A stretch of DNA of 64,000 nt from positions 9,484 to 73,483 of the forward strand of contig JAGHTC010000009.1 in assembly GCA_018065465.1 (NCBI GenBank), read 5' to 3'. This document shows, piece by piece, positions 608-44,580 of the stretch. The number at the start of each line of letters is the position of its first letter. Position 1 is the stretch's first letter. Origin of the DNA: Candidatus Ruminococcus equi (GTDB taxonomy: Bacteria > Bacillota > Clostridia > Oscillospirales > Acutalibacteraceae). Both the position numbers and the translations under genes were made by a program. The notes beneath the pieces were generated by a model that was not told where the DNA came from, ran no database searches, and saw only the letters and a program-made list of their open reading frames with translations.

Positions 608-1987
608 ATGATTTTCTCTGTTTTTGTATTTTTGGTTGAAGGTTTACTGGTAAACTTAATGTTTCAACCAAACGGCGATACAAATATGAATGCGGTAGCA
701 ATTGTATTTTTGCTCATCAACATTGTTGTAGTCAGTTTAGCAATAAACTTTTCTATGAACGACGATGATGCTAAAAAATACAAAGGTATCATTATGTCTT
801 CTTTTATTGTCAGGATACTTATTCTGTTTTGGGATGTCTATGCAAGAGGAATATACATTCTTCCTAACAGTGAAGGTGACGCTGAATATTATTATTCAAT
901 GGGTGTCAGCTATGCTTTCGGTCAACGTGCGGATAAGGTAGAACTGAAAGACTATCGTTATTATGTCGGGCAAATTTTCAAATTTATCGGAGACCAAAAA
1001 ATTACAGTACAGTTTTTGCATGTCTTTTTTGCAATATGTTCTATCATTCTCATTTACCGAATACTGACTATGTTTGAAGTTAGTGAAAATGTTAAGAAAA
1101 CAACTATGATATTTGCTGCATTTTTGCCGAACTCTATGATGATTACCACTTTCTTTTTGCAGGAATCGTTTATTGCTTTCTGCCTTGTTCTGTCGCTTTA
1201 TCTATACACAAAATGGTGGTTTGGAGCGAGTGCTGTTAATTTTATTTTTGCAATAATTTTTTCACTTATAGGTGGACTTTTCCATATGGGTGGTACAGTG
1301 GGCGCTATCGTATATGTGGTATTCTACTTCCTCATTAACAATAAGGAGAGAAAACTAATGATTACGCCTTACAGAATAGTACTTATTGTAATAGTGTTAT
1401 TTGTTTCGCTGTATCTTTTGTCAACTTACGGTGAAGATTTCCTTGGTAAAATCGGCGGAGATATGTCGGCTGAATCATTGACAAAGAATGCAACCGGCTA
1501 CAACACGGGTGGTAGTGAATATACGATAGGAATACAGGGACTTCCTGCTGTTTTGGACCTTATTGTCAATACACCTATTCGAATTGTCTATTTTATTTGT
1601 TCGCCTATGCCGTGGCGTTGGAGAAGTATCGGAGATATTTTTGCATTTTTCAGTAGTGCTCTTTTCTACATTTATACAGTTATTGTTGTTATCAAAACCT
1701 ATGCAAACAAGAATACAAGAACCGTATCGGGAAAAGGAAATATCCGAAGTTACATGTTCATTCTCGTTATGTTATGTCTTGTAGCATCATTTATGTTCGG
1801 CTGGGGTGTATCAAATTCCGGTTCGGCATTACGGCACAGAGAGAAATTCACTTACATATTTGTTCTTCTATACGGTATAGCAAGTGAAATAACTGTTAGA
1901 GCAGGGGCGACAAATAAGACAACAGAAGAAAACATCGATAATAATATCAACATTAAAAGTAAAGAATTATCTCGAAAAATGTATTGA
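608..1987 (+). CDS. wzy: Polytopic membrane protein, probable polysaccharide polymerase (Wzy-like)
   Basis: 459 aa, about 10 hydrophobic segments, large loop near aa 280-310, C-terminal 'NSGSALRHREK'; RBS GGAGGA; lies among glycosyltransferase genes. Confidence 0.6.
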   Translation: MIFSVFVFLVEGLLVNLMFQPNGDTNMNAVAIVFLLINIVVVSLAINFSMNDDDAKKYKGIIMSSFIVRILILFWDVYARGIYILPNSEGDAEYYYSMGVSYAFGQRADKVELKDYRYYVGQIFKFIGDQKITVQFLHVFFAICSIILIYRILTMFEVSENVKKTTMIFAAFLPNSMMITTFFLQESFIAFCLVLSLYLYTKWWFGASAVNFIFAIIFSLIGGLFHMGGTVGAIVYVVFYFLINNKERKLMITPYRIVLIVIVLFVSLYLLSTYGEDFLGKIGGDMSAESLTKNATGYNTGGSEYTIGIQGLPAVLDLIVNTPIRIVYFICSPMPWRWRSIGDIFAFFSSALFYIYTVIVVIKTYANKNTRTVSGKGNIRSYMFILVMLCLVASFMFGWGVSNSGSALRHREKFTYIFVLLYGIASEITVRAGATNKTTEENIDNNINIKSKELSRKMY

Positions 1988-2024
1988 TATAATTTTAATT
2001 TGTTAAGTATAGTCAGGAGTAATT

Positions 2025-2753: not shown

Positions 2754-2800
2754 TTTTACGCACTAATAAAGAGTATTGCTTTATAACAACGGAGACAGAT

Positions 2801-5106: not shown

Positions 5107-5128
5107 TATAGCATTCTGCGGAGGAAGT

Positions 5129-6220: not shown

Positions 6221-6242
6221 TTGCTTTTTAGGTTGTGATTTT

Positions 6243-7412: not shown

Positions 7413-7424
7413 GGAGAGCAAATT

Positions 7425-8471: not shown

Positions 8472-8496
8472 ATGATATGATTTTTAGGAGAAAGCG

Positions 8497-10017
8497 ATGA
8501 AACAAAGAAATGAAATAAAAAGCGGAGTAATACTGTCGTATGTATATCTGTCTATCGCGATGATAGCAGGCTTGCTCTATACTCCGCAGATGCTGAGAAT
8601 GATGGGGCAAAGCGAATACGGCTTGTATTCAATAGCAAATTCTGTTATCAGTTACCTGTCGTTTTTGGGACTCGGTCTGGAAAGTGCGTTGATAAAATAT
8701 ACGGCAAAATATATTGCGCTCGAAGACAAAGAATCCGAAAGAAAATTAGGCGGCGGATTCATAAAAGTATATCTTATCATTGCTGCGGTAACTTTGGTTT
8801 GCGGTTTTGTTCTTGCAAATAACCTCGGCTTTTTGTCACAAAATCTTACAGCAACAGAAGCATCTCGTTTGAGAATTATTGTAATGATTATGACTGTAAA
8901 CCTTGCCGTCAGTTTTCCAATGGGTGTTTTCGGTGCGGTAATTACGGCGCATGAAAGATTTACTTTCAGAAAAACAGTTGATATAATCCGTGAGATTACT
9001 CTTCCGATTACCATATTGGTTTTCTTATCAATGGGTTACAGAGCAATCGGTTTGGTTGTTATACATACGGTATTTAACTTTATCGTATTGATATCTAATT
9101 TCATTTATGCCAGAAAAGTATTAGGATATAAACCCATATTTGCAAAATTTGATATACCACTCATTAAAGAAATAACGGGATATACTGTGTTCATTTTTAT
9201 CGGAACAGTTGTTGACAGAATAAGTGATGCAACAAACAGTATGGTTATTGCTGCGGTGTCCGGCGCTGCCGCTGTTGCGGTATTCGGAGTCAGTATACAA
9301 ATATATGGGTATTATCTGAATTTTTCATCTTCAATCTCTACTTTCTTTTTCCCGAGAGTTGTCGGAATGACATATAAAAATGCAAGCGATGAAGAAGTTA
9401 CCGATTTGTTTATCAAAGTCGGCAGAGTGCAACTCTATGTTATTGCGTTAATTTGTAGTGGATTTATTGTTATCGGCAGAGATTTTATTAATCTTTGGGC
9501 AGGACCCGAGTATAGTATGGCGTACTATATTATTGTAGTTTTGATGGTACCTACGCTGATTAACAGAAGTCAGTCACTCGGTGTACAGATTTTGCAAGCG
9601 AGGAACAAGCATAAATTCAGGGCAATTTTATTCTTGTTTATTACTTTGTTGGATATAGGAATAAGTATTCCGCTTGCTATGATGTGGGATGGTTTAGGTG
9701 CTGCTATCGGTACATTTATCGCTACACTTATCGGCCCGATAATTATTATGAATATTTATTATTCAAAGAAAATGCATTTGGATATGAAAAGATATTGGAA
9801 AAGAACAATTCCGATACTCTTGCTTGTAGCGGTTCTTGTTGCACTGGGACTTTTAATGAACTATTTCTGGAAAGCAGACAACTGGATTGTATTGCTTGCA
9901 CAGGGACTAATTTATCTGGTTGTTTACGCTTTTGTAATGTATTTTATTGCATTTAATGATTATGAAAAGGGCTTAATTACGGGATTTATTTCCAAATTCA
10001 AAAGGAAAAAGGCGTAA
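8497..10017 (+). CDS. wzx: Oligosaccharide flippase (Wzx/MOP family)
   Basis: 506 aa, 12-14 hydrophobic segments, 'LGQSEYGLYS'-like N-terminus 'MGQSEYGLYSIANS'. Confidence 0.88.
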   Translation: MKQRNEIKSGVILSYVYLSIAMIAGLLYTPQMLRMMGQSEYGLYSIANSVISYLSFLGLGLESALIKYTAKYIALEDKESERKLGGGFIKVYLIIAAVTLVCGFVLANNLGFLSQNLTATEASRLRIIVMIMTVNLAVSFPMGVFGAVITAHERFTFRKTVDIIREITLPITILVFLSMGYRAIGLVVIHTVFNFIVLISNFIYARKVLGYKPIFAKFDIPLIKEITGYTVFIFIGTVVDRISDATNSMVIAAVSGAAAVAVFGVSIQIYGYYLNFSSSISTFFFPRVVGMTYKNASDEEVTDLFIKVGRVQLYVIALICSGFIVIGRDFINLWAGPEYSMAYYIIVVLMVPTLINRSQSLGVQILQARNKHKFRAILFLFITLLDIGISIPLAMMWDGLGAAIGTFIATLIGPIIIMNIYYSKKMHLDMKRYWKRTIPILLLVAVLVALGLLMNYFWKADNWIVLLAQGLIYLVVYAFVMYFIAFNDYEKGLITGFISKFKRKKA

Positions 10018-10044
10018 AATATTATTGATAAGGGGAAGAAAAAT

Positions 10045-10914
10045 ATGAAAGGCATCATTCTTGCCGGTGGAAAAGGCACAAGACTTTATCCTATGACAAA
10101 GGTTGTATCAAAACAACTTTTACCTGTATATGATAAGCCGATGATATATTATCCGCTTTCTATGCTTATGCTTGCGGGCATCAGAGAAATTCTTATTATT
10201 TCCACACCTGAGGACACTCCTCTTTATGAACAACTGCTTAGTGATGGAAGTAAACTTGGGATTTCGATTACATATAAAATTCAAGATACTCCTCGGGGAC
10301 TTGCCGACGCTTTTGTACTTGGTAAAGATTTTATCAGTGACGACAGTGTTTGTCTTATTTTAGGTGACAATATTTTTTACGGACAAGATATGACAAATAT
10401 TCTCTGTCAGGCAAAAGAAAATTTAGACGGAGCAACGGTTTTCGGTTATCCGGTAAAAGACCCGACTGAATTTGGTGTAGTTGAATTTGATGAAAACAAT
10501 AAGGTCATTTCCATAGAAGAAAAGCCAAAAAACCCGAAGTCAAATTATGCAGTTCCCGGACTGTATTTTTATGATAACAGCGTTGTAGATATTGCAAAAA
10601 ATGTTAAGCCTTCCGCAAGAGGCGAAATCGAAATCACCGCGGTAAATGAAGCATATCTTAATATGGGAAAGCTCAATGTAGTTTTACTCGGCAGAGGTGT
10701 TGCGTGGCTCGATACGGGAACACCGACAGGACTTCTAAATGCTGCACAATATGTTGAAGCGGTGCAGTCAAGGCAAGGCTTTTATATGTCATGTATCGAA
10801 GAAATTGCATGGAGAAAAGGCTTTATTTCAAAAGAAGATTTACGAAAACTCGGCAAAGAATTAAAAATGACCGATTACGGAAAATATATTATTTCTCTTG
10901 CAAAGGAGGATTAA
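10045..10914 (+). CDS. rmlA: Glucose-1-phosphate thymidylyltransferase
   Basis: '[34 protein letters not shown]', '[10 protein letters not shown]', 'WLDTGT'. Confidence 0.97.
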
Positions 10915-10917
10915 CAA

Positions 10918-11937
10918 ATGAAAATTTTGGTAACAGGCGGTGCCGGATTTATCGGCTCGAATTTTGTATATTATATGTTGAAAAATTATCCCGATTACAA
11001 GATAATCTGCGTTGATTGTCTTACCTATGCGGGAAATCTTTCAACATTAAAAGAAGCGCTTGAAAATAAGAATTTCAAATTTTACAAAACGAATATCTGT
11101 GACCGCAAGGGTATATACGAAATTTTTGAAACGGAAAAACCCGATATAGTTGTAAATTTTGCGGCTGAAAGTCATGTTGACCGTTCAATCGAAAATCCCG
11201 AGGTTTTTTTGCAGACAAATATATTAGGTACACAGGTTCTTATGGACGCTTGCAGGAAATACGGCAATATTCGTTATCATCAGGTATCTACCGATGAAGT
11301 GTATGGCGATTTACCTCTTGACAGGCCTGATTTGTTTTTTACCGAAGAAACTCCTTTGCACACTTCAAGTCCGTATTCTTCTTCAAAAGCAAGTGCTGAT
11401 TTGCTTGTGCTTGCATATTACCGCACTTATGCGCTTCCGGTAACAATTAGCCGTTGTTCAAATAATTACGGGCCATTCCACTTTCCCGAAAAACTTATTC
11501 CGCTTATGATAGCGAATGCGTTAAATGACAAGCCACTTCCTGTATATGGAAAAGGCGAAAATGTCAGGGATTGGCTGTATGTAGAAGACCACTGCAAGGC
11601 GATTGACTTGATTATTCACAACGGAAGAATAGGCGAAGTTTATAATGTCGGCGGCCACAACGAAATGAGAAATATCGACATAGTAAAACTCATTTGTGAC
11701 AAACTCAATAAACCGCAAAGCCTTATTACCTTTGTAACCGACAGAAAAGGTCACGATATGCGATATGCTATCGACCCGACAAAAATTCACAACGAGCTTT
11801 CGTGGTTACCGGAGACTAAATTTGCCGACGGCATTGATAAAACAATAGATTGGTACTTGACTCACAGAGAATGGTGGGAAGAGATTATATCCGGCGAGTA
11901 TCAAAATTATTATGAGAAAATGTATAAAAACAGATAA
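10918..11937 (+). CDS. rmlB: dTDP-glucose 4,6-dehydratase
   Basis: 'VTGGAGFIGSN', 'NFAAESHVDRSI', 'STDEVYG', 'PYSSSKA', 'SNNYGP.HFPEKLIP'. Confidence 0.97.
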   Translation: MKILVTGGAGFIGSNFVYYMLKNYPDYKIICVDCLTYAGNLSTLKEALENKNFKFYKTNICDRKGIYEIFETEKPDIVVNFAAESHVDRSIENPEVFLQTNILGTQVLMDACRKYGNIRYHQVSTDEVYGDLPLDRPDLFFTEETPLHTSSPYSSSKASADLLVLAYYRTYALPVTISRCSNNYGPFHFPEKLIPLMIANALNDKPLPVYGKGENVRDWLYVEDHCKAIDLIIHNGRIGEVYNVGGHNEMRNIDIVKLICDKLNKPQSLITFVTDRKGHDMRYAIDPTKIHNELSWLPETKFADGIDKTIDWYLTHREWWEEIISGEYQNYYEKMYKNR

Positions 11938-11939
11938 TA

Positions 11940-12974
11940 ATGCAGGAGTTTATTATGAGAGATAATCAGGTGGAATTAAGCATTTCCATAACGGTATACA
12001 ATCATGAGAATTATCTTGAAAAGCTTTTTGACAGCATATTGTGCCAAAAGGTAAACTTCAATTATGAAGTTGTTATCGGAGAAGATTGCTCTACAGATAA
12101 TTCCAGAGAAATTATAAGAAGATACGCACAAAAATATGATTTTTTCAAGCCGATATTCCGTGAAAAAAACATCGGTGGCACAGCGAATGAATTTGATACA
12201 TATCAACATTGTACCGGAAAATATATGTGTATTATTGACGGTGATGATTTTATCATAGATGAAAACCGTCTGCAAAGGCAGTACGAATATATGGAGTCTC
12301 ATCCTGACGCTTACTGGGTTGGAGCAAGAGGGAAAATTGTTGATGAAAATAACAACATTTTACCATATAAGCATTTTGATAAAGTTGAAGTACTTACCCC
12401 GGAGTCGTTGAAAAAGTTTTCGAATATGCCGAATTTAGGTTGTTTTATGTTCAAAAATATTTTTTTGAATGATACGGACAGGGAAAATTTATCAAAACTT
12501 CTTTTTACACATACCATTATTGGAGATTGGACAATTCTTTTATATTATCTTGATAAATCAGATGTAGAAATTTTTCCCGATTATGTTCACTGTTACAGAA
12601 AAGTGGTAAACAGTACAGCAAGTAACTTTAATTCAATTTACAGACGGCAGAAAAATAAATACGATGTAATTGTTGAACGAATGCAATACGAACAAATGCT
12701 GAATGAATATAAGTTTGATCGTGTATCTGTAAATTATTTGCGGTCAAAAAAGGCTGCAGAATTATATGCTGCTTTAGTGCGCGATAAAAGTCTTTCGAGT
12801 AGAAAATACGGGAGAGAGGTTTATAAAAAAGAATTTAAGCCTTTTATGACAGCAAAGGAAAGATGGACTTTACCTATTGGTGTAATAAAGGAGTATTACT
12901 CATATTACAAAATTTTTAGGGAACATGGTATTCTCAAAAAAGAAACCGCAGATGAAATTGGTAAAAAGGTATAA
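11940..12974 (+). CDS. Glycosyltransferase family 2
   Basis: 'SITVYNHENYL', 'EVVIGEDCSTDNS', 'CIIDGDDF'. Confidence 0.88.
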   Translation: MQEFIMRDNQVELSISITVYNHENYLEKLFDSILCQKVNFNYEVVIGEDCSTDNSREIIRRYAQKYDFFKPIFREKNIGGTANEFDTYQHCTGKYMCIIDGDDFIIDENRLQRQYEYMESHPDAYWVGARGKIVDENNNILPYKHFDKVEVLTPESLKKFSNMPNLGCFMFKNIFLNDTDRENLSKLLFTHTIIGDWTILLYYLDKSDVEIFPDYVHCYRKVVNSTASNFNSIYRRQKNKYDVIVERMQYEQMLNEYKFDRVSVNYLRSKKAAELYAALVRDKSLSSRKYGREVYKKEFKPFMTAKERWTLPIGVIKEYYSYYKIFREHGILKKETADEIGKKV

Positions 12975-13000
12975 AATTTTTTCTTTTGGAGGACATTATT

Positions 13001-14371
13001 TTGCTTCAAAATGTTTGCAAATTGCTGGTTGATTCTTGGCAAAGAAATGACGGAACTGAAACAATTGATTCCATACTTTCATGGGTGCAAAAGCGAAACG
13101 AAACGCTTCATGTTGAAATTAATAAAGTGTCTTTGGACGAATGTGATGATTGGCACTACGATTGCAGTGACGGAACAATACACAACAAAAATCGCTCCTT
13201 CTTTTCTATTGCAGGAATGAAAAGCGTAAGCGGCAGTAATGTTGTTGAACAGCCTGTTCTGTTGCAAAAAGAAATCGGATATCTCGGCTTTATCTGTAAG
13301 CCGATAAACGGTGTTTTACATTTTCTCGTTCAAGCGAAAATTGAGCCGGGAAATGTAAATACAATACAACTTTCACCGACAATCCAAGCCACAAAAAGCA
13401 ATTTTACTCAAAAACACGGTGGCAAAAAGCCAATGTACTTACGATATTTTATCAATGCGAATAAAGACAATATTTTAGTTGACCAAATTCAATCGGAGCA
13501 ATCATCAAGATTTTTGAAAAAGAGGAACAGAAATATTATTATTGTCTTTGATGAAGATGAAAAAATAGAGTGTAAGCCATCGCACAAGTGGTTAACTTTG
13601 GGACAAATTAAGGCGTTAATGCATTATCCTAATTTAGTCAATATGGACACAAGAACGGTTCTGTCGTGTATTCCGTATGCTTTGCTTGACAGAAACGATG
13701 TTAATTGTGAAGATAATCCTGTTTTATTATCAGTATTTTCATTACCCGAAAGAGAAAAAATAGTGGAAATGTTTCACTCTGTTAATAATATGAAAATGTT
13801 TGAAAGCAGAGAAAACGAAATAGTTGATTTGTATTCTCTTTCCGATTGGGAAATGAAAGACGGAGAATATGTATGCAAAAAGCCTTATCCGATGAAAGTG
13901 ATTTTCTGTGATATTTCTATCGAAGAAAGGGAAGTAAGCCATTGGTGTCAACCGCTGTTTGAAGCAACAGGAAAAGCACTGTTTTGTCTGTTGTGTGCAG
14001 ATGTTGACGGAAAAAGAGAGTTTTTAGTCCGACTTACCCCTGAAATAGGCTGTTTTGATACCGTGGAAATAGGACCTACTTTGCAAAGAGAAGCAGTATA
14101 CAGCGGTGATGAAGATGAGGTTTCAAGACTTATCTTTTCAAAAATTGCAAACAAAGACTCAATTATTTTTGATTCGGTTTTATCTGAAGAGGGCGGACGT
14201 TTTTATCATGAAGAAAATCGGAACATAATAATCAAGATTGATAAAGATGAGATAAAGGATTTGCCAAGCGGATATTTTTGGTGTAATTTTGCTACACTTA
14301 ATTCACTGAATATGGTTAATAATTGTTTGAATATTCAACTAAGAAATTTGATGTCTTTATTGGAGATATAA
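13001..14371 (+). CDS. NDP-hexose 2,3-dehydratase (EvaA/SpnO/OleV/TylX3 family)
   Basis: Two internally repeated domains: 'FLVQAKIEPGN..QLSPTIQATKSN', 'QSEQSSRFLKKRNRN' and 'FLVRLTPEIG..EIGPTLQ', 'LSEEGGRFYHEENRN'. Start moved to TTG 13001, 7 nt after GGAGGA (12988-12993). Confidence 0.9.
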   Translation: MLQNVCKLLVDSWQRNDGTETIDSILSWVQKRNETLHVEINKVSLDECDDWHYDCSDGTIHNKNRSFFSIAGMKSVSGSNVVEQPVLLQKEIGYLGFICKPINGVLHFLVQAKIEPGNVNTIQLSPTIQATKSNFTQKHGGKKPMYLRYFINANKDNILVDQIQSEQSSRFLKKRNRNIIIVFDEDEKIECKPSHKWLTLGQIKALMHYPNLVNMDTRTVLSCIPYALLDRNDVNCEDNPVLLSVFSLPEREKIVEMFHSVNNMKMFESRENEIVDLYSLSDWEMKDGEYVCKKPYPMKVIFCDISIEEREVSHWCQPLFEATGKALFCLLCADVDGKREFLVRLTPEIGCFDTVEIGPTLQREAVYSGDEDEVSRLIFSKIANKDSIIFDSVLSEEGGRFYHEENRNIIIKIDKDEIKDLPSGYFWCNFATLNSLNMVNNCLNIQLRNLMSLLEI

Positions 14372-14372
14372 T

Positions 14373-15383
14373 ATGGATAAATTAAGAGTAGGAGTTTTGG
14401 CTCCTTCTGAAATTGCTTTTAGACGTTTTGTTCCGGCAATATTAAAAAGCGATAAACTTGAATTTGCCGGTGTTTCCTGTGCCACTGAAAAAGAGTGGGG
14501 AACAGACGACAGTAATGAAATAATCAAAAGTGAATTTGATAAAGCAAATAACTTTGTCGAAAATTTTGGCGGGAAAGTGTATTTGGGATATGAGGATATA
14601 CTTTCCGATGACAGTATTGATGCAGTTTATGTTCCGCTTCCTCCGGGATTGCATTACAAATGGGGTAAAAGGGTACTCGAAAGCAAAAAACACCTTTTGT
14701 TGGAAAAACCATTTTCCGATAGTGTTGAACATACAAAGGAATTACTTGAGACGGCAAAGTTAAATAATCTTGCCGTGCATGAAAACTTTGCCTTTGTATA
14801 TCACAAGCAAATTGACAAAATTTTGGAATTGGTAAATGATGGCGCAATTGGTGAAACGAGACTGATTAGGACAGCGTTTGGTTTTCCATATCGTGGGGAA
14901 AACGATTTCAGATACCATAAGAATATGGGCGGAGGAGCTTTGCTTGATTGCGGGGGCTATCCGACAAGACTTGCGTCTTTGTTGTTGGGTGAGAGTGCAA
15001 AAGTAGTTTGTTCATCACTGTGCGCTGCAAAAGGACATGATGTCGATGTTTTCGGAAGTGCGACTGTTCAGAATGATTCAAGATTGACTGCACAGATTTC
15101 TTTCGGTATGGACAACTCATATAAATGTGAGCTTGAAATTTGGGGAGAAAGAGGAGTCATTTATACACCGAGAGTCTTTACCCCAACAGCACAGATGAAT
15201 ACGGTTATAATGCTGAAAACCAATGAGGAACAGGAAATAGTAATAGAGCCGGATGACCAATTTTTTAATTCTGCTTTAGTATTACTTGATTGTGTTAACG
15301 ACAAAAATTTCAGAGAAAAAAGAATGACTGAAATACTGAATCAATCATTATTAATGAATGAAATCAGGGAGTGTGCAAAATGA
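14373..15383 (+). CDS. Gfo/Idh/MocA oxidoreductase, probable NDP-hexose 3-ketoreductase (KijD10/SpnN/OleW-like)
   Basis: 'RVGVLAPSEIAFRRFVPAI', 'VYVPLPPGLH', 'LLEKP', 'GGGALLDCGGYP'; starts 1 nt after the dehydratase stop. Confidence 0.82.
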   Translation: MDKLRVGVLAPSEIAFRRFVPAILKSDKLEFAGVSCATEKEWGTDDSNEIIKSEFDKANNFVENFGGKVYLGYEDILSDDSIDAVYVPLPPGLHYKWGKRVLESKKHLLLEKPFSDSVEHTKELLETAKLNNLAVHENFAFVYHKQIDKILELVNDGAIGETRLIRTAFGFPYRGENDFRYHKNMGGGALLDCGGYPTRLASLLLGESAKVVCSSLCAAKGHDVDVFGSATVQNDSRLTAQISFGMDNSYKCELEIWGERGVIYTPRVFTPTAQMNTVIMLKTNEEQEIVIEPDDQFFNSALVLLDCVNDKNFREKRMTEILNQSLLMNEIRECAK

Positions 15384-16471
15384 GCAAAATTCAAGTAGTT
15401 CGTTCGTCTATGCCTCCTTATGAGGAATATTGCGAAGAAATAAAAGATTTGTGGGAGAACAGATGGCTTACTCATCAAGGACCAAAACATCAGCAACTCG
15501 AAAAAGATTTGCGCAAATATCTTGATGTAGATAATATTACTTTATTTGCAAACGGACATCTTGCTTTGGAACTTGCAATAAAAGCATTCGGGCTTACCGG
15601 AGAAGTAATTACTACACCATATACTTTTGCGTCTACTACACAGGCTATTGTCAGAAATGGGCTTGTGCCGGTCTTTTGTGATATAAATCCGATTGATTAT
15701 ACTATTGATGTCAACAAGATAGAAGATTTGATTACAGAGAAAACTTCTGCAATTATTCCTGTCCATGTTTACGGTTCGATTTGTGACTATGAAAGAATTG
15801 AAAAAATCGCAAATAAATATAATTTGAAAGTAATTTATGATGCTGCGCATGCGTTCGGAATAAAAATCGGTTCAAAGCCTGTCGGTACACTCGGCGATGC
15901 ATCTATGTTCAGTTTTCACGCCACCAAGGTGTATCATACTGTTGAAGGTGGCGGACTTACTTACAGTGACAGTACGCTCACAGAAAAGTTAGACCAACTC
16001 AAGCAGTTCGGAATGTACGGAAAAGATGAAGTGCCGACTGTCGGAACAAATGCAAAGATGACAGAAGCACACGCCGCTATGGGTTTATGTAACCTTCGAC
16101 ATATAGATGAAGAAATTGCAAAGCGCAAAGTTGCTTTTGACAGATATATGGAAAATCTCGGTGGGATTGACGGGATTAAACTTATGAAAATTCAAGATTC
16201 AGTTAAGCATAATTATGCTTATTTTCCTGCTGTGTTCGATGGCTACAAATATTCAAGAGATGAAATAGAAAGAAAACTTGCTGAAAATGATATTTTCGCA
16301 AGAAAGTATTTCTATCCGATTACTAACGAGTTTGAAGCATATAAAGGTATGTTTGAAATTCAGCAAACACCGATTGCAAAGTATATTTCAGAACGGGTTT
16401 TAACTTTACCGCTGTATGCTGATTTATCGGTTGATGATGTTGATAGAATTTGCAAATTGATTATTGAGTAG
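15380..16471 (+). CDS. DegT/DnrJ/EryC1/StrS PLP aminotransferase (VioA-like sugar C4-aminotransferase)
   Basis: 'VITTPYTFAST', 'IYDAAHAFG', 'FSFHATK' (PLP Lys), 'GTNAKMTE'; ATGA overlap at 15380. Confidence 0.9.
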   Translation: MSKIQVVRSSMPPYEEYCEEIKDLWENRWLTHQGPKHQQLEKDLRKYLDVDNITLFANGHLALELAIKAFGLTGEVITTPYTFASTTQAIVRNGLVPVFCDINPIDYTIDVNKIEDLITEKTSAIIPVHVYGSICDYERIEKIANKYNLKVIYDAAHAFGIKIGSKPVGTLGDASMFSFHATKVYHTVEGGGLTYSDSTLTEKLDQLKQFGMYGKDEVPTVGTNAKMTEAHAAMGLCNLRHIDEEIAKRKVAFDRYMENLGGIDGIKLMKIQDSVKHNYAYFPAVFDGYKYSRDEIERKLAENDIFARKYFYPITNEFEAYKGMFEIQQTPIAKYISERVLTLPLYADLSVDDVDRICKLIIE

Positions 16472-16497
16472 TATTGATTTGCAGGCTGAGGTGTCAT

Positions 16498-17682
16498 ATG
16501 GGAATAAAAACGGCATTAAGAAAAACGGCTGAAAAGATTTTTCAGTCAAAGTGGTATCCAAACAAAAAAATACTTTTGGAAAGCAAACCCGATATGGGAT
16601 GTCAGACCTATCCTGTTTTTCAGTATATGCTAAAAGAAGGTTTGAATGAAAAGTACAAACTTATTTGGCTTGTTAGTAATAAGGACGAGTACAAAGATGT
16701 TCATATAAAAAATGTTAAATTTCTAAATTATGAGCCACAGAATTTCTTTGAGCGGTTTTACAGAAGATATCTTCTTTTTACGTCAAGAGCAATGATGTAT
16801 TCTAACAGGTATATTGGGAAAGTCTTTGATAAACAATTACTTGTATATTTGCGACATGGTACTGCATCAATTAAATCAAGAATAAAACACAGAAGAGAAA
16901 ACGATATTAACGAGAGTGATATAAGTATCAGTATATCTCATTTTTTTGATGACATTGATGTAATGGAACTGAATATCAGAAGAGAAAGTCTTTTTGAATC
17001 GGGCTGCCCGAGAAGCGACTATCTGTTTGAATCTGTTGATTATTGTGAAAAACTTTTTCCTGAAAACAAATATGATAAAATCATTATCTGGATGCCTACT
17101 TTCAGAAAAACTGATTCTAGTGACAGAATTGACTCAACTTTTGAATTCCCTTTGGGGTTGCCATGCTTATATTCAAATGAAGATTGTGAAAGATTAAATG
17201 AAGCATTGGCAAATAATAATATTTTGCTTGTACTAAAACCGCATCCTGCACAGGATTTATCTGTATTAAAATCAATGAACCTGTCTAACTTTGTTACAGT
17301 ATATGACAGTGATATAAAGAAAGCGGGTATTCAACTTTATCAGTTTTTGGGCTCAACGGATGCCTTGATTACCGACTATTCTTCGGTATATTATGATTAC
17401 CTTCTTACAGGAAAAAATATCGGCATTACCATTGATGATATTGATGAATATGTAAAAGATACAGGTTTTGTATTTGACAATGTTTTTGATATACTCGTCG
17501 GAGAATATATCAAAAATACCGATGAGTTTATTGAATTTGTAAAACATATTGCAAGCGGAGAAGACAGCAAAAAAGAACAAAGAGAAAAAGTTTGCAATTT
17601 AGTTCATAAATATAAAGACAATCAATCTACAAAAAGAGTCTATGAGCATATTGTAGAGGAACTTGAAAAAAGATACCAATAA
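16498..17682 (+). CDS. TagB/TagF-family (CDP-glycerol glycerophosphotransferase-like) protein
   Basis: 'YLRHGT', 'GCPRSD', 'WMPTFRK', 'LKPHP', 'DALITDYSSVYYDYLL'. Start moved to ATG 16498 after GAGGTG. Confidence 0.88.
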   Translation: MGIKTALRKTAEKIFQSKWYPNKKILLESKPDMGCQTYPVFQYMLKEGLNEKYKLIWLVSNKDEYKDVHIKNVKFLNYEPQNFFERFYRRYLLFTSRAMMYSNRYIGKVFDKQLLVYLRHGTASIKSRIKHRRENDINESDISISISHFFDDIDVMELNIRRESLFESGCPRSDYLFESVDYCEKLFPENKYDKIIIWMPTFRKTDSSDRIDSTFEFPLGLPCLYSNEDCERLNEALANNNILLVLKPHPAQDLSVLKSMNLSNFVTVYDSDIKKAGIQLYQFLGSTDALITDYSSVYYDYLLTGKNIGITIDDIDEYVKDTGFVFDNVFDILVGEYIKNTDEFIEFVKHIASGEDSKKEQREKVCNLVHKYKDNQSTKRVYEHIVEELEKRYQ

Positions 17683-17694
17683 CGGAGGGATAGT

Positions 17695-18474
17695 ATGAAA
17701 GTTGTAATTCTTGCCGGCGGTTACGGAACGAGAATTTCAGAGGAATCACACCAAAAGCCGAAGCCTATGATAGAAATAGGCGAAATGCCTATTCTTTGGC
17801 ACATTATGAAAGAGTATTCTCACTACGGAATAAATGAATTTATCATTTGTGCGGGATACAAACAACATGTAATCAAAGAGTGGTTTGCCGACTATTTTCT
17901 TCATACTTCGGATATCACCTTTGACTTTACAAACGGTGACGAAATTATCGTTCACAATAAGCGTGCCGAATCGTGGAAAGTTACTGTTGTTGATACGGGA
18001 CTAAATACTCAAACAGGCGGAAGAGTTAAGAGAATAAAAGACTATATCGGTGACGAAACTTTTATGCTTACCTACGGTGATGCTGTCGGTGATATCGATA
18101 TAGATGCATTGTTAAAGAAACATAAGGAAAGCAAGAAACTCGGTACTATATCTGTATATAATTTCGGACAGAACAAGGGTGTTGTGAAACTTAACCCCGA
18201 CGGCACTGTTGACAAATTCAGAGAAAAAAGCGGAATTGACGGCGACCTTATCAATATCGGATATATGGTTTTTGAACCGAAGATTTTTGACTACATTGAC
18301 GGCGACGACACCGTATTTGAGAAAGAGCCTATCGAGGCTTTGGTTGAGCAAAATCAACTGATAAGTTACCTCCACAAGGGTTATTGGCAGTGTATGGATA
18401 CATTAAGAGAAAAGCAGAAATTAGAAAGCCTTTGGGCAAGCGGTAATGCTCCGTGGAAAGTGTGGGAAGACTGA
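17695..18474 (+). CDS. rfbF: Glucose-1-phosphate cytidylyltransferase
   Basis: 'VILAGGYGTRISEES..KPKPMIEIG', 'VDTGLNTQTGGR', 'YWQCMDTLREK'. Confidence 0.96.
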   Translation: MKVVILAGGYGTRISEESHQKPKPMIEIGEMPILWHIMKEYSHYGINEFIICAGYKQHVIKEWFADYFLHTSDITFDFTNGDEIIVHNKRAESWKVTVVDTGLNTQTGGRVKRIKDYIGDETFMLTYGDAVGDIDIDALLKKHKESKKLGTISVYNFGQNKGVVKLNPDGTVDKFREKSGIDGDLINIGYMVFEPKIFDYIDGDDTVFEKEPIEALVEQNQLISYLHKGYWQCMDTLREKQKLESLWASGNAPWKVWED

Positions 18475-19529
18475 TGAATTTTGACCTTTCGTTTTATAAA
18501 GGAAAAAGAGTTTTTGTTACCGGACACACAGGATTCAAAGGCTCTTGGCTTTGCAAAATCCTGCAAAACGCAGGGGCAGAAGTTTTCGGCTATTCGCTTG
18601 AGCCTCCGACAAATCCCTCGTTATTTGAGATAGCCGACATTGAAAAAAATATGACTTCTTTTATCGGGGATATAAGAGATTACAAAGCCTTGAAAGAAGC
18701 GTTTGACAAAGCGCAACCCGAAATTGTTTTGCACCTTGCGGCACAGCCTATCGTCAGGGACAGTTACAAAGAGCCCGTGTATACTTATGAGACAAATGTT
18801 ATGGGTACAGTAAACATTCTCGAATGTGTGAGAACAACCGACTGTGTAAAATCTTTGCTGAATGTTACAACCGACAAGGTTTACTATAACAGAGAAGAAC
18901 AGGGACACGGCTATACTGAAGACGAAATGCTCGACGGCTACGACCCGTATTCGAACTCAAAGTCTTGTTCCGAACTTGTGACTCACAGTTATAAGAGAAG
19001 TTTTTTTGCTGACAGAGATATTGCCATTTCAACAGCAAGAGCGGGTAACGTTATCGGCGGCGGAGATTTTTCTAACGACAGAATTATTCCCGACTGTATC
19101 AGGGCGGCACAGAAAAAAGAAAACATTACCGTCCGTAACCCTTATTCAACAAGACCGTATCAACATGTGCTTGAACCGTTGTTTGCATATCTTATGATTG
19201 CGGCAAAGCAGTATGATGATATTACTCTTGCAGATTACTATAATGTCGGTCCCGATGATTGCGACTGCTTTGAAACCGGGGCTTTGGTAGATTTGTTTGT
19301 AAAGCACTGGGGCGATATTAAATGGGAAAACAAGAGCGACGGCGGTCCTCACGAGGCAAACTTCTTAAAACTCGACTGTACAAAATTGAAAAAGACTTTC
19401 TCTTGGCAGCCGAGGTGGAATCTAGATAAAGCAATAGAGAAAACAGTACAGTGGAGCAAATGCTGGCTTAGTGGCGGCGATGTCAGAATTTGTATGGATA
19501 AACAAATTGAAGAGTTTTTTAATTTATAA
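18474..19529 (+). CDS. rfbG: CDP-glucose 4,6-dehydratase
   Basis: 'VTGHTGFKGSWL', 'HLAAQPIVR.SY', 'TTDKVY', 'DPYSNSK', 'RAGNVIGGGD', 'RPYQHVLEPL'; TGATG overlap. Confidence 0.96.
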   Translation: MNFDLSFYKGKRVFVTGHTGFKGSWLCKILQNAGAEVFGYSLEPPTNPSLFEIADIEKNMTSFIGDIRDYKALKEAFDKAQPEIVLHLAAQPIVRDSYKEPVYTYETNVMGTVNILECVRTTDCVKSLLNVTTDKVYYNREEQGHGYTEDEMLDGYDPYSNSKSCSELVTHSYKRSFFADRDIAISTARAGNVIGGGDFSNDRIIPDCIRAAQKKENITVRNPYSTRPYQHVLEPLFAYLMIAAKQYDDITLADYYNVGPDDCDCFETGALVDLFVKHWGDIKWENKSDGGPHEANFLKLDCTKLKKTFSWQPRWNLDKAIEKTVQWSKCWLSGGDVRICMDKQIEEFFNL

Positions 19530-19543
19530 GGATAGATGATATT

Positions 19544-20467
19544 ATGAAAAAAGTAATTGTGACAGGTGCTAATGGCTTTATAGGTACTTCATTGCTCGAA
19601 CTTATGAGCAAAGAAGATGTTCTGATTTTTGCTATAATTAAAGATGAAAGTGAAGATATAAGCAAAATCAAAGATTATGATAATGTCAAGATAATTTACT
19701 GCGATTTCAACTACATAGAAAAATTGCCGAATTTAATAACCGACAGAGATATAGATTATTGTATTCATCTTGCTTGGGCAGGTTCATTTGGAGATGCTCG
19801 TGCCGACTATGACTGTCAACTGAATAATGTCAAAGCAACATTAGATTTGATTGAAGTTTTAAAAGAAATGAAAGTCAAAAGATTTGTCGGTGCCGGTACA
19901 CTTGCCGAAAAAGATGTACTGAATTATCATATGACAGACGGCGCAACACCCAATGCAGTAAGTATATATGGAATAGCAAAACTCACAAATCAGTTAATGA
20001 CAAAGGCATTATGTTCTAAATATGGGATTGAGCATATCTGGTGCTATTTGTCAAACACTTACGGTGTTGGCAATACCACAAATAATTTTGTGAATATGGC
20101 AAGCCGAAAAATGATACGCGGTGAACGGGCATCATTTACTTCCGGAGAACAGACATACGATTTTGTATATATTACCGATACAGTCAAAGCAATCAACTGT
20201 GTTGCAAAATTTGGAAAGAAAAACTGTTCCTATTATTTGGGAAGCACTAAAGAACGCCCGCTGAAAGAATACATCAAAATTATCAAAGATACTGTTGACC
20301 CGCATATAGAACTTTATTTAGGAGAGGTACCGTTTAACGGAAAAGCACTTTCTTGTGAAAACTACAGTGCTGAAAAACTTGTTGAACATACAGGATTTGT
20401 TCCGTCTGTTGATTTTGAAGACGGAATAAAAAAGACCGTTGAATGGCTAAAAGAACAGGAGAAATAA
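19544..20467 (+). CDS. Extended SDR, probable NDP-4-keto-6-deoxyhexose reductase/epimerase
   Basis: 'VTGANGFIG', 'HLAWAG', 'YGIAK'. Confidence 0.8.
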   Translation: MKKVIVTGANGFIGTSLLELMSKEDVLIFAIIKDESEDISKIKDYDNVKIIYCDFNYIEKLPNLITDRDIDYCIHLAWAGSFGDARADYDCQLNNVKATLDLIEVLKEMKVKRFVGAGTLAEKDVLNYHMTDGATPNAVSIYGIAKLTNQLMTKALCSKYGIEHIWCYLSNTYGVGNTTNNFVNMASRKMIRGERASFTSGEQTYDFVYITDTVKAINCVAKFGKKNCSYYLGSTKERPLKEYIKIIKDTVDPHIELYLGEVPFNGKALSCENYSAEKLVEHTGFVPSVDFEDGIKKTVEWLKEQEK

Positions 20468-21034
20468 ATGGTACAGAAATTTGAATTTACACCGCTTGAG
20501 CTTGAGGGCGCATATCTTATCAAGCCTTTTTATGCAACGGACGACCGCGGTGGTCTTATCAAAGATTATAATGTCGATACATTCAAAGCAAACGGAATTG
20601 ACCACGACTTAAAGGAAGTTTTCTACACTATTTCAAAGCGCGGCGTTATCCGTGCTACACATTTTCAACTGGTAAAACAGCAGGCTAAATTAGTCCGTTG
20701 TGTCAGCGGTCATGTCTATGATGTTATCGTTGACCTGCGAATTGATTCACCTACTTTCGGTAAGTGGCAGGGCTTTCACCTTACAGGTGAAAACACCAAT
20801 TCTTTGCTGGTGCCCCAGTATTTCGGTCACGGTTATCTTGTAATTGAAGACTCCGTTGTCAGTTACAAATGTGCCGAAGTGTTCTACGGTGAAGGTGATT
20901 CGGGCATTATGTATAATGACCCCGACATTGCTATAGAATGGCCTTTTGAACTTATCGGCGGAAAAGAAAATCTTATTATCAGCGAAAAGGACAAAGCCCT
21001 TATGTCGCTGAAGGATTATAAAAAATTATTCTGA
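20468..21034 (+). CDS. RmlC-family NDP-4-keto-6-deoxyhexose 3,5-epimerase
   Basis: 'RGVIRATHFQ..QAKLVRC..G.VYDVIVDLR.DSPTFGKW', 'FGHGY', 'SYKC'; His/Lys/Tyr catalytic positions present. Confidence 0.92.
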   Translation: MVQKFEFTPLELEGAYLIKPFYATDDRGGLIKDYNVDTFKANGIDHDLKEVFYTISKRGVIRATHFQLVKQQAKLVRCVSGHVYDVIVDLRIDSPTFGKWQGFHLTGENTNSLLVPQYFGHGYLVIEDSVVSYKCAEVFYGEGDSGIMYNDPDIAIEWPFELIGGKENLIISEKDKALMSLKDYKKLF

Positions 21035-21050
21035 TTTTGAGGAAAGCATA

Positions 21051-23264: not shown

Positions 23265-23266
23265 TA

Positions 23267-23300
23267 AAAGCGACTTATCTTTTGATAGGTCGCTTTCTTT
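23267..23300 (+). terminator. Intrinsic terminator ending the polysaccharide operon
   Basis: AAAGCGACTTATC-TTTT-GATAGGTCGCTTT stem (one G.T pair) followed by CTTT. Confidence 0.8.
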
Positions 23301-23308
23301 ATATTTAG

Positions 23309-23337
23309 TTGACAATATACATAAAAAGTAATATAAT
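23309..23337 (+). promoter_or_regulatory. Consensus sigma-A promoter for capD-galE-glmS
   Basis: TTGACA (23309-14), 17 nt, TATAAT (23332-37). Confidence 0.85.
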
Positions 23338-23402
23338 CAATATGTATAATTATGAGTTATTTTGGGACAGTATGAATTTTTTTGAGATTTGGGGGAAACA
23401 AG

Positions 23403-25298: not shown

Positions 25299-25308
25299 GA
25301 GAAAGACT

Positions 25309-42929: not shown

Positions 42930-44033
42930 TTATGACAGAATAATATCGCAGATACGGTCAACATCAGAAAGTGACAAGTCTGCATATATAGGCAGGCAAA
43001 GGACATTTTCGCACAAGATTTTTGAGATAGGTGTTGCACCGTTTTGTTCTGATGTGGGAAGGTCTTTGTAGTACTCAAAGCTGTTGGTAGCAGGGGCAAA
43101 ATATTTTCTTGCCAAGATACCTTGTTCTCCCAACCTATGTGCGATTTCGTCTCTGCTATATTTATATCCCTTTGTAACCATGGGGAAATAAGCATAGTTA
43201 GATACAACGCCCTCTTGAATAGGCGTAAGTTGTATTTCGGGTATGTTGCCCAGTCTTTCTCTGTATCTTCCTGCAACATTCTTTCTCTTTGCGATTTCTT
43301 CCTCGATATGGCGAAGATTGCAAATACCCATAGCAGCCTGAAACTCGTTCATTTTTGCGTTACCGCCACATAGTTGAGAACAATTGTTTTTATATCCGAA
43401 ATTTTTCATCATATAAAGCTTTTCTTCAAAACTGTCATCGCTGTAGCACAACGCTCCGCCTTCGATAGTATGAAAAACTTTTGTCGCATGGAAACTGAAC
43501 ATCGAAAAATCACCGAATGCGGCAACACTTTTACCGCATTTTGTTTCATAGAAAGCGTGAGCGGCGTCATAGATGACTTTCAGTCCGTATTTGTCGGCAA
43601 TTTTTTGTATCTTTTCAACATCACAGATTGTACCGTAAACATGAACAGGCATGACAGCAACGGTTTTATCGGTGATAAGTGCCTCGATTTTTTCGGGGTT
43701 TATGGTAAAGTCGTCTTCATTGACATCACAAAACACGGGGGTAAGCCCGCTTCTACTTATGGCGTGAGTAGTAGACGCAAAAGTAAACGGGGTTGTGATT
43801 ACTTCACTGCCTTTTGGAAAAGAGAATACCGACAAAGCATTTTCAAGTGCTAAATGACCGTTTGTATATAAGGTCACATTTGGCACGCCGAGTATATTTT
43901 CAAGTTTTTCTTCAAATTCTCTGTGCTTTATTCCGTTGTTTGTCAGCCATCTTGAGTCCCAAAGTTCCTTGATTTCTTCACAGTATTCTTCAAACGGGGG
44001 CATTGATGACCTTGTTACGTTTATATTTGACAT
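42930..44033 (-). CDS. Second DegT/VioA-like sugar aminotransferase
   Basis: 'VITTPFTFAST', 'YDAAHAF', 'FSFHATK'; 23/30 N-terminal residues identical to 15380-16471. Confidence 0.92.
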   Translation of the reverse strand: MSNINVTRSSMPPFEEYCEEIKELWDSRWLTNNGIKHREFEEKLENILGVPNVTLYTNGHLALENALSVFSFPKGSEVITTPFTFASTTHAISRSGLTPVFCDVNEDDFTINPEKIEALITDKTVAVMPVHVYGTICDVEKIQKIADKYGLKVIYDAAHAFYETKCGKSVAAFGDFSMFSFHATKVFHTIEGGALCYSDDSFEEKLYMMKNFGYKNNCSQLCGGNAKMNEFQAAMGICNLRHIEEEIAKRKNVAGRYRERLGNIPEIQLTPIQEGVVSNYAYFPMVTKGYKYSRDEIAHRLGEQGILARKYFAPATNSFEYYKDLPTSEQNGATPISKILCENVLCLPIYADLSLSDVDRICDIILS

Positions 44034-44096: not shown

Positions 44097-44561
44097 TTAC
44101 AGTACTTTTTCTACTATTATTGTTTTGCCGTGTATGGATTTCATTGTGAACCCCAACTTTCTGAAAAGTGAGAGTATCTTTTTGTTTACTATATACGGTC
44201 TCGCATTAACATATCTCATACCGTGTTCGGAAGATACCTTTATCGCCTCATTAAACAATGAGAGTGAAAGTCCTTTTTTTCGATATTCTATTGAAGTGCC
44301 GGCAAATGTAAAATATGCTATTTTATTTGTTATGTCATTACAGTAAAACATAATAAGGGAAATGATTTTTTCGCCTTCAAGAATCGCAAGGGCGTAGCCG
44401 TTGACTACGACCTTTTCTGCATATTCGTGAAAGTCAACACGGGCTGCCAAAGACTCGGGCAGATAAGGCTCTATTTCCCACAAAAAATCAACTATTTTTT
44501 CAATATCCTTACAAACTACGATAGGATATTCTTTTTCTATATTGGTATTATCAATAGACAT
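44097..44561 (-). CDS. GNAT-family N-acetyltransferase
   Basis: 'AGTSIEYRKKGLSLSL' (acetyl-CoA motif A), 'LFRKLGF'. Start moved to ATG 44561 (GAGG 6 nt upstream); the track's extension overlaps tkt. Confidence 0.8.
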   Translation of the reverse strand: MSIDNTNIEKEYPIVVCKDIEKIVDFLWEIEPYLPESLAARVDFHEYAEKVVVNGYALAILEGEKIISLIMFYCNDITNKIAYFTFAGTSIEYRKKGLSLSLFNEAIKVSSEHGMRYVNARPYIVNKKILSLFRKLGFTMKSIHGKTIIVEKVL

Positions 44562-44580
44562 AGTAAACCTCACGCAAAAC

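Follow-up and report, generated by a model that had tools for sequence, protein, structure and literature searches.

A predicted 2-deoxygenation cassette for an amino sugar in surface-glycan operons of Candidatus Ruminococcus equi and other Bacillota

The forosamine route of spinosyn biosynthesis (SpnO, SpnN, SpnQ, SpnR, and SpnS) starts from dTDP-4-keto-6-deoxyglucose and passes through 2,3-dehydration, C3 reduction by an enzyme of the Gfo type, and a final transamination at C4. Actinomycete natural products also contain the related 4-amino-2,4,6-trideoxy sugars kedarosamine and pyrrolosamine. A similar succession of enzymes appears to be encoded in DNA from Candidatus Ruminococcus equi (GenBank assembly GCA_018065465.1, contig JAGHTC010000009.1), in a stretch of 64,000 nucleotides that we call the window and that finds its best representation among metagenomes of the horse gut. 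Specifically, genes for an EvaA-type 2,3-dehydratase, a KijD10-type Gfo/Idh/MocA reductase, and a DesI-type aminotransferase (hereafter the trio) lie downstream of rmlA, rmlB, and a glycosyltransferase gene in an operon for a surface glycan, for which the trio probably makes dTDP-4-amino-2,4,6-trideoxyhexose. The forosamine route also has a SpnQ-type 3-deoxygenation and an N-methyltransferase, whereas the pathway encoded in the window has neither. Moreover, the forosamine genes reside beside those of a polyketide synthase (PKS) and serve an aglycone acceptor, whereas the window genes are part of a Bacillota Wzx-type envelope operon whose predicted acceptor is a glycan.

Each enzyme of the trio has a prototype of known structure. 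EvaA (PDB 4J7G), KijD10 (3RBV), and DesI (2PO3) are each the best or only full-length PDB relative of the corresponding window enzyme, and the catalytic residues are kept, but the window enzymes have diverged from these prototypes (264, 186, and 196 bits, respectively) and come from low-GC anaerobes. The viosamine and Fuc4N(Ac) routes of O-antigens and of enterobacterial common antigen (VioA, WecE) share with the window RmlA, RmlB, a related C4 aminotransferase, an envelope context, and, frequently, N-acyltransferases. These routes keep the 2-hydroxyl group, whereas the window and about 11 other loci insert the dehydratase-reductase pair before the aminotransferase. AATGal (2-acetamido-4-amino-2,4,6-trideoxygalactose), which occurs in polysaccharide A (PSA) of Bacteroides fragilis and in the pneumococcal type 1 capsule, is likewise a 4-amino-trideoxyhexose in a Wzx/Wzy polymer, and its free 4-amine confers zwitterionic character. 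AATGal carries a 2-acetamido group and is made by a UDP route from GlcNAc that needs no 2-deoxygenation, whereas in the sugar predicted for the window C2 would be a CH2 group and the glycosidic bond would be labile to acid.

A predicted 'Fuc4N' capsule cluster of Clostridium botulinum and pathogenic Clostridium butyricum, which corresponds to our locus L025, is free of the dehydratase and is the only one that the C. butyricum genomics paper describes (PMC12342839). A review of nucleotide-sugar dehydratases lists 2,3-dehydratases only in antibiotic pathways (PMC8987622), and the literature regards 2-deoxygenation of sugars by EvaA-type enzymes as a trait of antibiotic biosynthesis in actinomycetes. 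Moreover, 2-deoxy sugars are absent from a catalogue, published in 2025, of the monosaccharides that make up glycans of gut commensals (PMC12413058). An earlier first-pass annotation of the window, made from its letters alone, knew of no characterized Firmicute surface polymer with such a residue. The full-text literature, in whose coverage subscription journals are mostly missing, likewise yielded no paper that reports such a residue from a surface polymer, and none that connects surface polymers of Bacillota with 2,3-dehydratases or with 2-deoxy sugars. As judged from the genes, what differs is the context, in which actinomycete-type deoxy-aminosugar chemistry is set in a viosamine/Fuc4N frame within a primary envelope-glycan operon of Bacillota.

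Predicted chemistry of the six-gene block

In the pathway that we favor, RmlA and RmlB would supply dTDP-4-keto-6-deoxy-D-glucose, from which the EvaA-type dehydratase would take off the 2-hydroxyl group to yield a 3,4-diketo-2,6-dideoxy sugar. Reduction at C3 by the KijD10-type reductase would then give dTDP-4-keto-2,6-dideoxy-D-glucose, with an equatorial 3-hydroxyl group by analogy, and amination at C4 by the DesI-type aminotransferase would give dTDP-4-amino-2,4,6-trideoxyhexose, which would have the D-arabino configuration if its amine is equatorial as in DesI. The operon would build an oligosaccharide linked to undecaprenyl phosphate, which Wzx would flip and which would probably then be polymerized. 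We infer the activities, the order of substrates, the stereochemistry, any later acylation, and the choice of glycosyltransferase. The order of 2,3-dehydration, C3 reduction, and C4 transamination was already part of the first-pass annotation, and it is supported here. That annotation also offered two end products. The first, a 4-amino-2,4,6-trideoxyhexose, fits those trio loci that have no other enzyme for the 4-keto intermediate, although its D-arabino configuration is only weakly suggested; the second, a dideoxy sugar made alongside viosamine, is weighed below as a rival.

All six open reading frames (ORFs) between positions 10045 and 16471 lie on the plus strand where they had first been placed, and their content is borne out by family scores (Table 1). 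By inspection, the dehydratase gene starts at the TTG of position 13001, with GGAGGA 7 nucleotides before it, to give a 456-amino-acid protein (P0001). Its TAA codon (14369-14371) is separated by a single base from the ATG of the reductase gene (14373), and the stop of the reductase gene overlaps the start of the aminotransferase gene in an ATGA (15380-15383). Both of these junctions had been pointed out before, and the three genes are predicted to be translationally coupled.

The dehydratase has EvaA as its sole PDB match (E = 2.4e-77), with both halves aligned, and it has the EvaA-type architecture, with two Hexose_dehydrat (Nudix-like) domains in tandem on a single chain of about 460 amino acids. 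Glu139 and Glu190 are the catalytic glutamates of pocket A in EvaA, and their mutation inactivates the enzyme (PMC8987622). In the alignment with 4J7G, these residues correspond to the glutamates of QAKIEPGN and QSEQSS, respectively, in the window protein. The equivalent of Glu190 is kept in 27 of 27 dehydratase homologues and that of Glu139 in 26, with the 27th sequence truncated at this position. The window dehydratase is predicted from these features to carry out 2,3-dehydration of dTDP-4-keto-6-deoxyglucose. Its relatives form 7,422 clusters at E ≤ 1e-20, and the nearest named ones are from Bacillota, not actinomycetes.

Similarly, the reductase aligns with KijD10 over its full length (E = 9e-54), and the next structure of the Gfo family reaches 77 bits. 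The catalytic lysine of the EKP motif and the catalytic tyrosine of the GGY motif are retained in the window reductase and in 27 of 27 homologues; the lysine (Lys102 of KijD10) is marked by the K-to-E mutant chain 3RCB, whereas the tyrosine position (Tyr186) is our own count on the alignment. Gfo-type 3-ketoreductases yield an equatorial 3-hydroxyl group. By analogy, the new hydroxyl group should also be equatorial, as in the D-gluco type.

After DesI, which aminates dTDP-4-keto-6-deoxyglucose at C4, the best PDB matches of the aminotransferase are perosamine synthases (about 160 bits). QdtB and WlaRG, which act at C3, reach about 147 bits. Its motif SFHATK, which carries the lysine for pyridoxal phosphate (PLP), lines up with the lysine motif of DesI. 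The best NCBIfam model is again that of DesI (TIGR04427), and all top NCBIfams represent C4 enzymes. We classify the window protein as DesI-like rather than as a DesI orthologue or equivalog because its score of 296 bits falls below the equivalog cut-off of 650. With these results, the identities first assigned to the three enzymes are sustained by their closest structural relatives and by their catalytic residues.

The C4 assignment can be approached from a second direction. At the C. botulinum locus L025, an aminotransferase with 69% identity to that of the window is accompanied by RmlA and RmlB only, with no dehydratase, reductase, or isomerase. Because this enzyme follows RmlA and RmlB in the absence of the pair, the locus provides an indirect indication that the aminotransferase clade acts at C4 of the RmlB product. 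In addition, C4 would be the sole remaining ketone after reduction at C3, so that amination should occur there. In a small tree of aminotransferases, the C. botulinum enzyme groups as sister to its C. butyricum counterpart, which has the dehydratase and the reductase as partners. Since one sister works without the pair, the pair seems to behave as a plug-in module for 2-deoxygenation that has been added to a 4-amino-4,6-dideoxyhexose route. The same tree led us to reject the idea that dehydratase-associated aminotransferases form a clade of their own, and thus there is no sequence marker of specificity for a 2-deoxy substrate. An equatorial 4-amine, and with it the D-arabino configuration, is weakly suggested by analogy with DesI as the nearest structure and by the equatorial 3-hydroxyl group that Gfo-type enzymes give.

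Table 1. Predicted features of the glycan operon and of a distant aminotransferase cluster in the window
Feature	Coordinates	Strand	Evidence
Multi-pass membrane protein, putative Wzy polymerase or GT-C-type transferase	608..1987	+	About 10 hydrophobic segments
Wzx-type flippase	8497..10017	+	PF01943 Polysacc_synt 45 bits; 11 hydrophobic segments; 66%-identical counterpart in L013
RmlA, glucose-1-phosphate thymidylyltransferase	10045..10914	+	TIGR01207 469 bits (cut-off 361)
RmlB, dTDP-glucose 4,6-dehydratase	10918..11937	+	TIGR01181 484 bits (cut-off 365)
Soluble glycosyltransferase family 2 (GT2) protein, possible transferase of the predicted sugar	11940..12974	+	PF00535 89.5 bits; 0 transmembrane segments
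NDP-hexose 2,3-dehydratase, EvaA type, two Nudix-like domains	13001..14371	+	PF03559 387 bits, two stretches
Gfo/Idh/MocA dTDP-3,4-diketo-2,6-dideoxyhexose 3-ketoreductase, KijD10 type	14373..15383	+	GFO_IDH_MocA N- and C-terminal domains (PF01408 and PF22725)
PLP-dependent sugar C4 aminotransferase, DesI/VioA type	15380..16471	+	PF01041 (DegT/DnrJ/EryC1) 319 bits
TagF-like CDP-alcohol phosphotransferase	16498..17682	+	PF04464 141 bits
RfbF (glucose-1-phosphate cytidylyltransferase) and RfbG (CDP-glucose 4,6-dehydratase)	17695..19529	+	TIGR02623 362 bits; TIGR02622 443 bits; each exceeds its cut-off
Short-chain dehydrogenase/reductase (SDR)	19544..20467	+	Epimerase/SDR Pfam matches
RmlC-family epimerase	20468..21034	+	TIGR01221 164.2 bits (equivalog cut-off 155.75)
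Operon end	23267..23337	+	13-bp-stem terminator (23267-23296) and perfect TTGACA-17-TATAAT promoter (23309-23337)
Second DesI-type aminotransferase	42930..44033	-	60% identity to operon aminotransferase; DesI best NCBIfam
GNAT adjoining second aminotransferase, 27 kb from operon	44097..44684	-	PF00583 21.6 bits (cut-off 20.7)

Recurrence of the cassette in other genomes

For comparison, we assembled 19 loci (L001 through L019) from reference genomes and metagenome-assembled genomes (MAGs) and added others through further look-ups of homologues, so that adjacency of the dehydratase and reductase genes could be judged in 27 loci in all. The two genes are adjacent in every one of them, and the complete trio is present in at least 11 further independent loci, with identities of 45-73%. 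Given both observations, the arrangement is far beyond what chance would produce. The first-pass annotation had proposed a survey of the trio in gut genomes; in the loci compared here, the trio recurs outside the window in the company of envelope-glycan genes. It is found with rmlA/rmlB in L013, L014, L016, L018, L021, L022, L023, L024/L026, L027, and L028.

Four of the 19 genome loci continue from the pair into an aminotransferase gene. One is L013 (Clostridiales Firm_08), whose synteny with the window covers almost the entire operon, and the others are L014 (Acetatifactor), L016 (Adlercreutzia agrestimuris), and L018 (a Clostridia MAG). Homologue look-ups added three more metagenomic trio loci and several from named species. 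In Trichococcus shcherbakoviae (L022), the gene order is Wzx, Hexapep, trio, RmlA, and RmlB, and in Schinkia azotoformans MEV2011 (L023) it is Wzy_C, GT2, Wzx, a Hexapep-ACPS fusion, and the trio. In C. butyricum (L024/L026), where a cassette protein is present in hundreds of assemblies, the order is Glf, GT2, a GT2-TagF fusion, IspD, ATP-grasp, trio, RmlA, RmlB, and dlt-like genes. The latter locus (1-18090) is teichoic-acid-like, includes a class II aldolase gene, and is directly upstream of the dlt-like genes (MBOAT, AMP-binding, and a small carrier protein).

Four of these loci are particularly informative. No candidate for a sugar epimerase or a 4-ketoreductase lies within 10 kb of the trio in L016, L018, L022, or L023, and therefore the aminotransferase is the sole visible consumer of the reductase product in each of them. 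The Acetatifactor MAG (L014, 2550-4679) carries a single ORF of 709 amino acids in which the Gfo reductase and the aminotransferase are fused. We considered this fusion as Rosetta-stone proof of coupling and set it aside as weak evidence, since no second case exists among 5.8 billion proteins.

The pair is also found in a different setting. In 14 of the 19 genome loci (drawn from L001-L012, L015, L017, and L019, with the exception of L011), the pair is followed by genes for an RmlC-like epimerase and for one or two SDRs, with no aminotransferase; in L011, the pair is followed by an SDR only. The RmlC-like/SDR-type loci come from gut MAGs (Clostridia, Oscillospiraceae, Ruminococcus, Erysipelotrichales, and Bacilli) and carry rmlA/rmlB, as seen for example at positions 10001-13787 of L003. 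Their GT-rich cassettes from gut Clostridia, Oscillospiraceae, and Erysipelotrichales share the pair with the window (reductase 45-52% and dehydratase 52-60% identity) but end in epimerization and 4-ketoreduction, whereas the cassette of the window ends in transamination. The 14 loci predict a neutral 2,6-dideoxy-L-hexose in surface glycans, a residue that is likewise undescribed there. The comparison also puts the description of the window as an antibiotic-type pathway embedded in a glycan locus into perspective. The chemistry fits that description, but the oddity was overstated, as envelope loci of Bacillota commonly carry this cassette. Judged by its gene content, the window is not a singular case but belongs to a widespread and uncharacterized family of 2-deoxygenation cassettes in Bacillota surface-glycan loci.

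The surrounding operon and alternative explanations

The operon extends beyond the window on its upstream side. An identical Logan contig (L020) extends the start of the window and carries, in order, a divergent spoIIID gene and genes for a Bac_transf phosphoglycosyl transferase, a GT4 glycosyltransferase, and an SDR, followed by the protein with about 10 transmembrane segments at window positions 608-1987. This order places the start of the glycan operon about 2.7 kb before the window. From there, the operon proceeds through glycosyltransferases, a UDP-GlcNAc 2-epimerase, Wzx, the dTDP block, the TagF-like protein, RfbF/RfbG, the SDR, the RmlC-like protein, NTP_transf_5, VanZ, and CYTH. At least five glycosyltransferases are encoded in addition to the initiating phosphoglycosyl transferase and Wzx. 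We place the end of the operon at 23267 because the strongest hairpin follows the CYTH gene and a consensus promoter lies ahead of the next gene; these are the best terminator-like and best promoter-like sites within 8000-27990. That promoter precedes genes for a 638-amino-acid CapD/PglF-like dehydratase and GalE, which form a transcription unit of their own and may provide the first sugar in UDP-linked form.

The Wzx half of the earlier label 'Wzx/Wzy surface-glycan locus' stands on the flippase match, the phosphoglycosyl transferase, and the many glycosyltransferases, whereas its Wzy half has only the 10-segment candidate. As had been reported, neither a PKS nor a nonribosomal peptide synthetase is encoded in the 64-kb window, as judged by Pfam scans that covered nearly every ORF of at least 150 amino acids. 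The statement that rmlA-rmlB are not followed by rmlC/rmlD is accurate for the genes immediately downstream, and no RmlD-family gene was found in the window, but an RmlC-family gene is present farther along the operon.

RfbF and RfbG are predicted to form a second sugar branch, which is CDP-linked. The SDR and the RmlC-like protein most likely finish this CDP branch, because their genes stay with RfbF-RfbG in L013, L027, and L028, with the SDR gene exchanged for a DegT gene in two of these. The same proteins could, alternatively, divert the 4-keto intermediate of the 2-deoxy sugar. In the closest relatives, L027 (16078-17793) and L028 (16067-17765), the DegT protein that takes the place of the SDR (compare window positions 19544-21034) is 32% identical to the operon aminotransferase, and RfbF-RfbG, the RmlC-like gene, and the trio are unchanged. 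This exchange suggests a CDP-linked 4-amino-6-deoxyhexose in those two loci and a CDP-6-deoxyhexose in the window. The TagF-like ORF opens at a TTG (16474), although its likely start is the ATG behind GAGGTG that is given in Table 1. A gene of this kind is always beside RfbF-RfbG (window 16474-19529, L013 12854-15873, L027 12987-16058, and L028 13017-16045). No CDP-glycerol or CDP-ribitol synthase is encoded in the operon, which suggests that the TagF-like donor might be a CDP-hexose derivative.

Several observations weigh against synthesis of a 4-amino-2,4,6-trideoxyhexose for a polymer. The reductase-aminotransferase fusion of L014 is unique and may be an assembly artefact, and the aminotransferase falls short of the DesI equivalog cut-off. 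Moreover, the aminotransferase clade also serves 2-hydroxy substrates, such that acceptance of the 2-deoxy substrate is judged from context. A further concern is that the RmlC-family epimerase and the SDR of the operon could consume the 4-keto-2,6-dideoxy intermediate, as is predicted in the 14 gut loci of the epimerase type. If so, then the pathway would branch. The RmlC-like protein and the SDR would produce a 2,6-dideoxy-L-hexose, and the aminotransferase would convert dTDP-4-keto-6-deoxyglucose to viosamine or Fuc4N, which corresponds to the second alternative of the first-pass annotation. The prevalence of epimerase-type loci, an RmlC-like gene that exceeds the rmlC cut-off within the same transcription unit, and a C. 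botulinum aminotransferase that works without 2-deoxygenation all speak for such branching, but we regard it as unlikely. The conservation of the RmlC-like gene and the SDR gene beside RfbF-RfbG points to a CDP-linked substrate, and L027 and L028 exchange the SDR for DegT while the trio remains the same. In addition, the RmlC-like protein shares just 36-41% identity with its counterparts in the epimerase-type loci, some trio loci have neither an epimerase nor a reductase of this kind, and the reductase and aminotransferase genes are translationally coupled.

Doubt also attaches to the fate of the sugar, since the assignment of the protein at 608-1987 as Wzy is weak. This ORF has no Pfam match above threshold and no match to Wzy_C, with only a sub-threshold match to PMT, a GT-C family (E = 0.0055), and Pfam scans revealed no chain-length regulator (Wzz/CpsCD) or LCP ligase in the operon. 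The trio might therefore make the proposed sugar for an oligosaccharide on undecaprenyl diphosphate that is transferred once, by a GT-C-type protein encoded at 608-1987, to a protein (S-layer, flagellin, or pilin) or to a lipid. We consider this outcome distinctly improbable, given that Wzy proteins are often missed by Pfam, a Wzy_C protein is clearly encoded in the syntenic Schinkia locus, a TagF-like enzyme and many glycosyltransferases suit a polymer, and the C. butyricum cassette resides in a teichoic-acid-like locus beside dlt genes. Far less credible is amination at C3 of the 3,4-diketo product in the manner of EvaB or DnrJ, with the Gfo protein reducing elsewhere to yield a 3-amino-2,3,6-trideoxyhexose. 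The combination of a 2,3-dehydratase with a C3 aminotransferase is the classic route to sugars of the daunosamine and epivancosamine class (for the context of EvaA, see PMC8987622), and C3 enzymes still score appreciably against the window aminotransferase. Its best relatives are nevertheless C4 enzymes, and a member of its clade directly follows RmlB in C. botulinum without an isomerase or dehydratase. The Gfo protein, for its part, is specifically KijD10-like and accompanies the dehydratase even in loci that lack an aminotransferase. Nor do we give much credence, and here almost none, to a reading in which the dehydratase is irrelevant or inactive and the other two enzymes oxidize and then aminate a different nucleotide sugar, as in the WbpB/WbpE and NtdC/NtdA pairs. 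Such Gfo-DegT pairs are common in surface-glycan loci, and there are weak NCBIfam matches to UDP-GlcNAc 3-dehydrogenase, but these amount to 49 bits against a cut-off of 450, the dehydratase retains both catalytic glutamates, and its gene accompanies the Gfo gene in all loci compared, whereas the aminotransferase is optional. Score margins and gene context led us to reject both of the latter explanations.

Transfer, acylation, and meaning of the predicted sugar

If the trio makes dTDP-4-amino-2,4,6-trideoxyhexose, then a glycosyltransferase must accept it. The first-pass annotation assigned this role to the GT2 protein encoded between rmlB and the dehydratase gene, which we consider a guess. 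A 49%-identical gene is located directly upstream of the dehydratase gene in L013, whereas relatives in the other trio loci have 28-36% identity, occupy other positions, or are absent. The protein is too poorly conserved across trio loci to be retained as a dedicated transferase.

No N-acyltransferase is encoded in the window operon. Among relatives, N-acyltransferases of several kinds (Hexapep, GNAT, ATP-grasp, and GT56-LbH) are commonly encoded beside the aminotransferase or fused to it, which fits an amine as the product. A further domain (GNAT, hexapeptide acyltransferase, ATP-grasp, or GT2) is joined to the aminotransferase in proteins P0249, P0254, P0345, P0352, P0355, P0356, P0266, P0282, P0309, P0341, P0354, and P0297 of the clade. 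These fusions point to varied N-acylation of the amino sugar, aminoacylation included.

Because the operon is without an N-acyltransferase and the TagF-like gene directly follows the aminotransferase gene, one can envision a polymer in which free 4-amino-2,4,6-trideoxyhexose lies beside phosphodiesters. This would be a zwitterionic and acid-labile glycan of gut Clostridia, with a class of residue that is not known from any cell-surface polymer. We view this idea as speculative and rather unlikely, and have downgraded it because a GNAT gene beside the paralogous aminotransferase gene could act in trans (Table 1). The encoded protein is homologous to the GNAT domain of the fusion protein P0345 (E = 4e-9), and possibly acetylates the amino sugar of the operon. 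In the cluster to which these genes belong (42930-46370, minus strand), the GNAT gene and a split transketolase, whose N- and C-terminal halves are separate genes, precede the second aminotransferase gene, with an asparaginase-like gene and an EamA transporter gene downstream. The whole resembles a small, separate cluster for an amino sugar or a branched sugar. Should a free amine be present, the zwitterionic glycan might act like PSA in immune interactions and would be invisible to composition analysis by standard acid hydrolysis.

Other genes of the window may also bear on the envelope. Positions 7425-8471, inside the glycan operon, have a weak match to Sulfotransfer_3 (24.9 bits, below the cut-off) and none among NCBIfams, and the product may modify the glycan. 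Just past the glycan region (31354-34543, minus strand), a 700-amino-acid ORF without a Pfam match adjoins an Acyl_transf_3 membrane O-acyltransferase gene. Positions 34629-37781 encode an FtsW/RodA (SEDS) protein with an N-terminal FHA domain, followed by a class B penicillin-binding protein transpeptidase. The FHA-SEDS protein, together with a PP2C phosphatase (60286-61059), hints at control of wall synthesis through phospho-threonine.

Glycosidic bonds of 2-deoxy sugars are acid-labile. A residue of this kind would be lost in routine analyses based on hydrolysis, which could explain why reports of it are missing. The culturable carriers C. butyricum, T. shcherbakoviae, and S. azotoformans MEV2011 make the claim directly testable, and the non-actinomycete enzymes would represent an easily expressed source for glyco-engineering. 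If real, the residue would be a determinant of antigenicity and of phage reception, and would affect how the polymer survives in gastric or lysosomal acid. More broadly, if the predictions hold, then 2-deoxy sugars, whether amino or neutral, would be a common and overlooked part of Bacillota envelopes, and 2-deoxy and 4-amino-2,4,6-trideoxy hexoses would be ordinary constituents of the envelopes of many of these bacteria, including C. butyricum, a species with both probiotic and pathogenic members.

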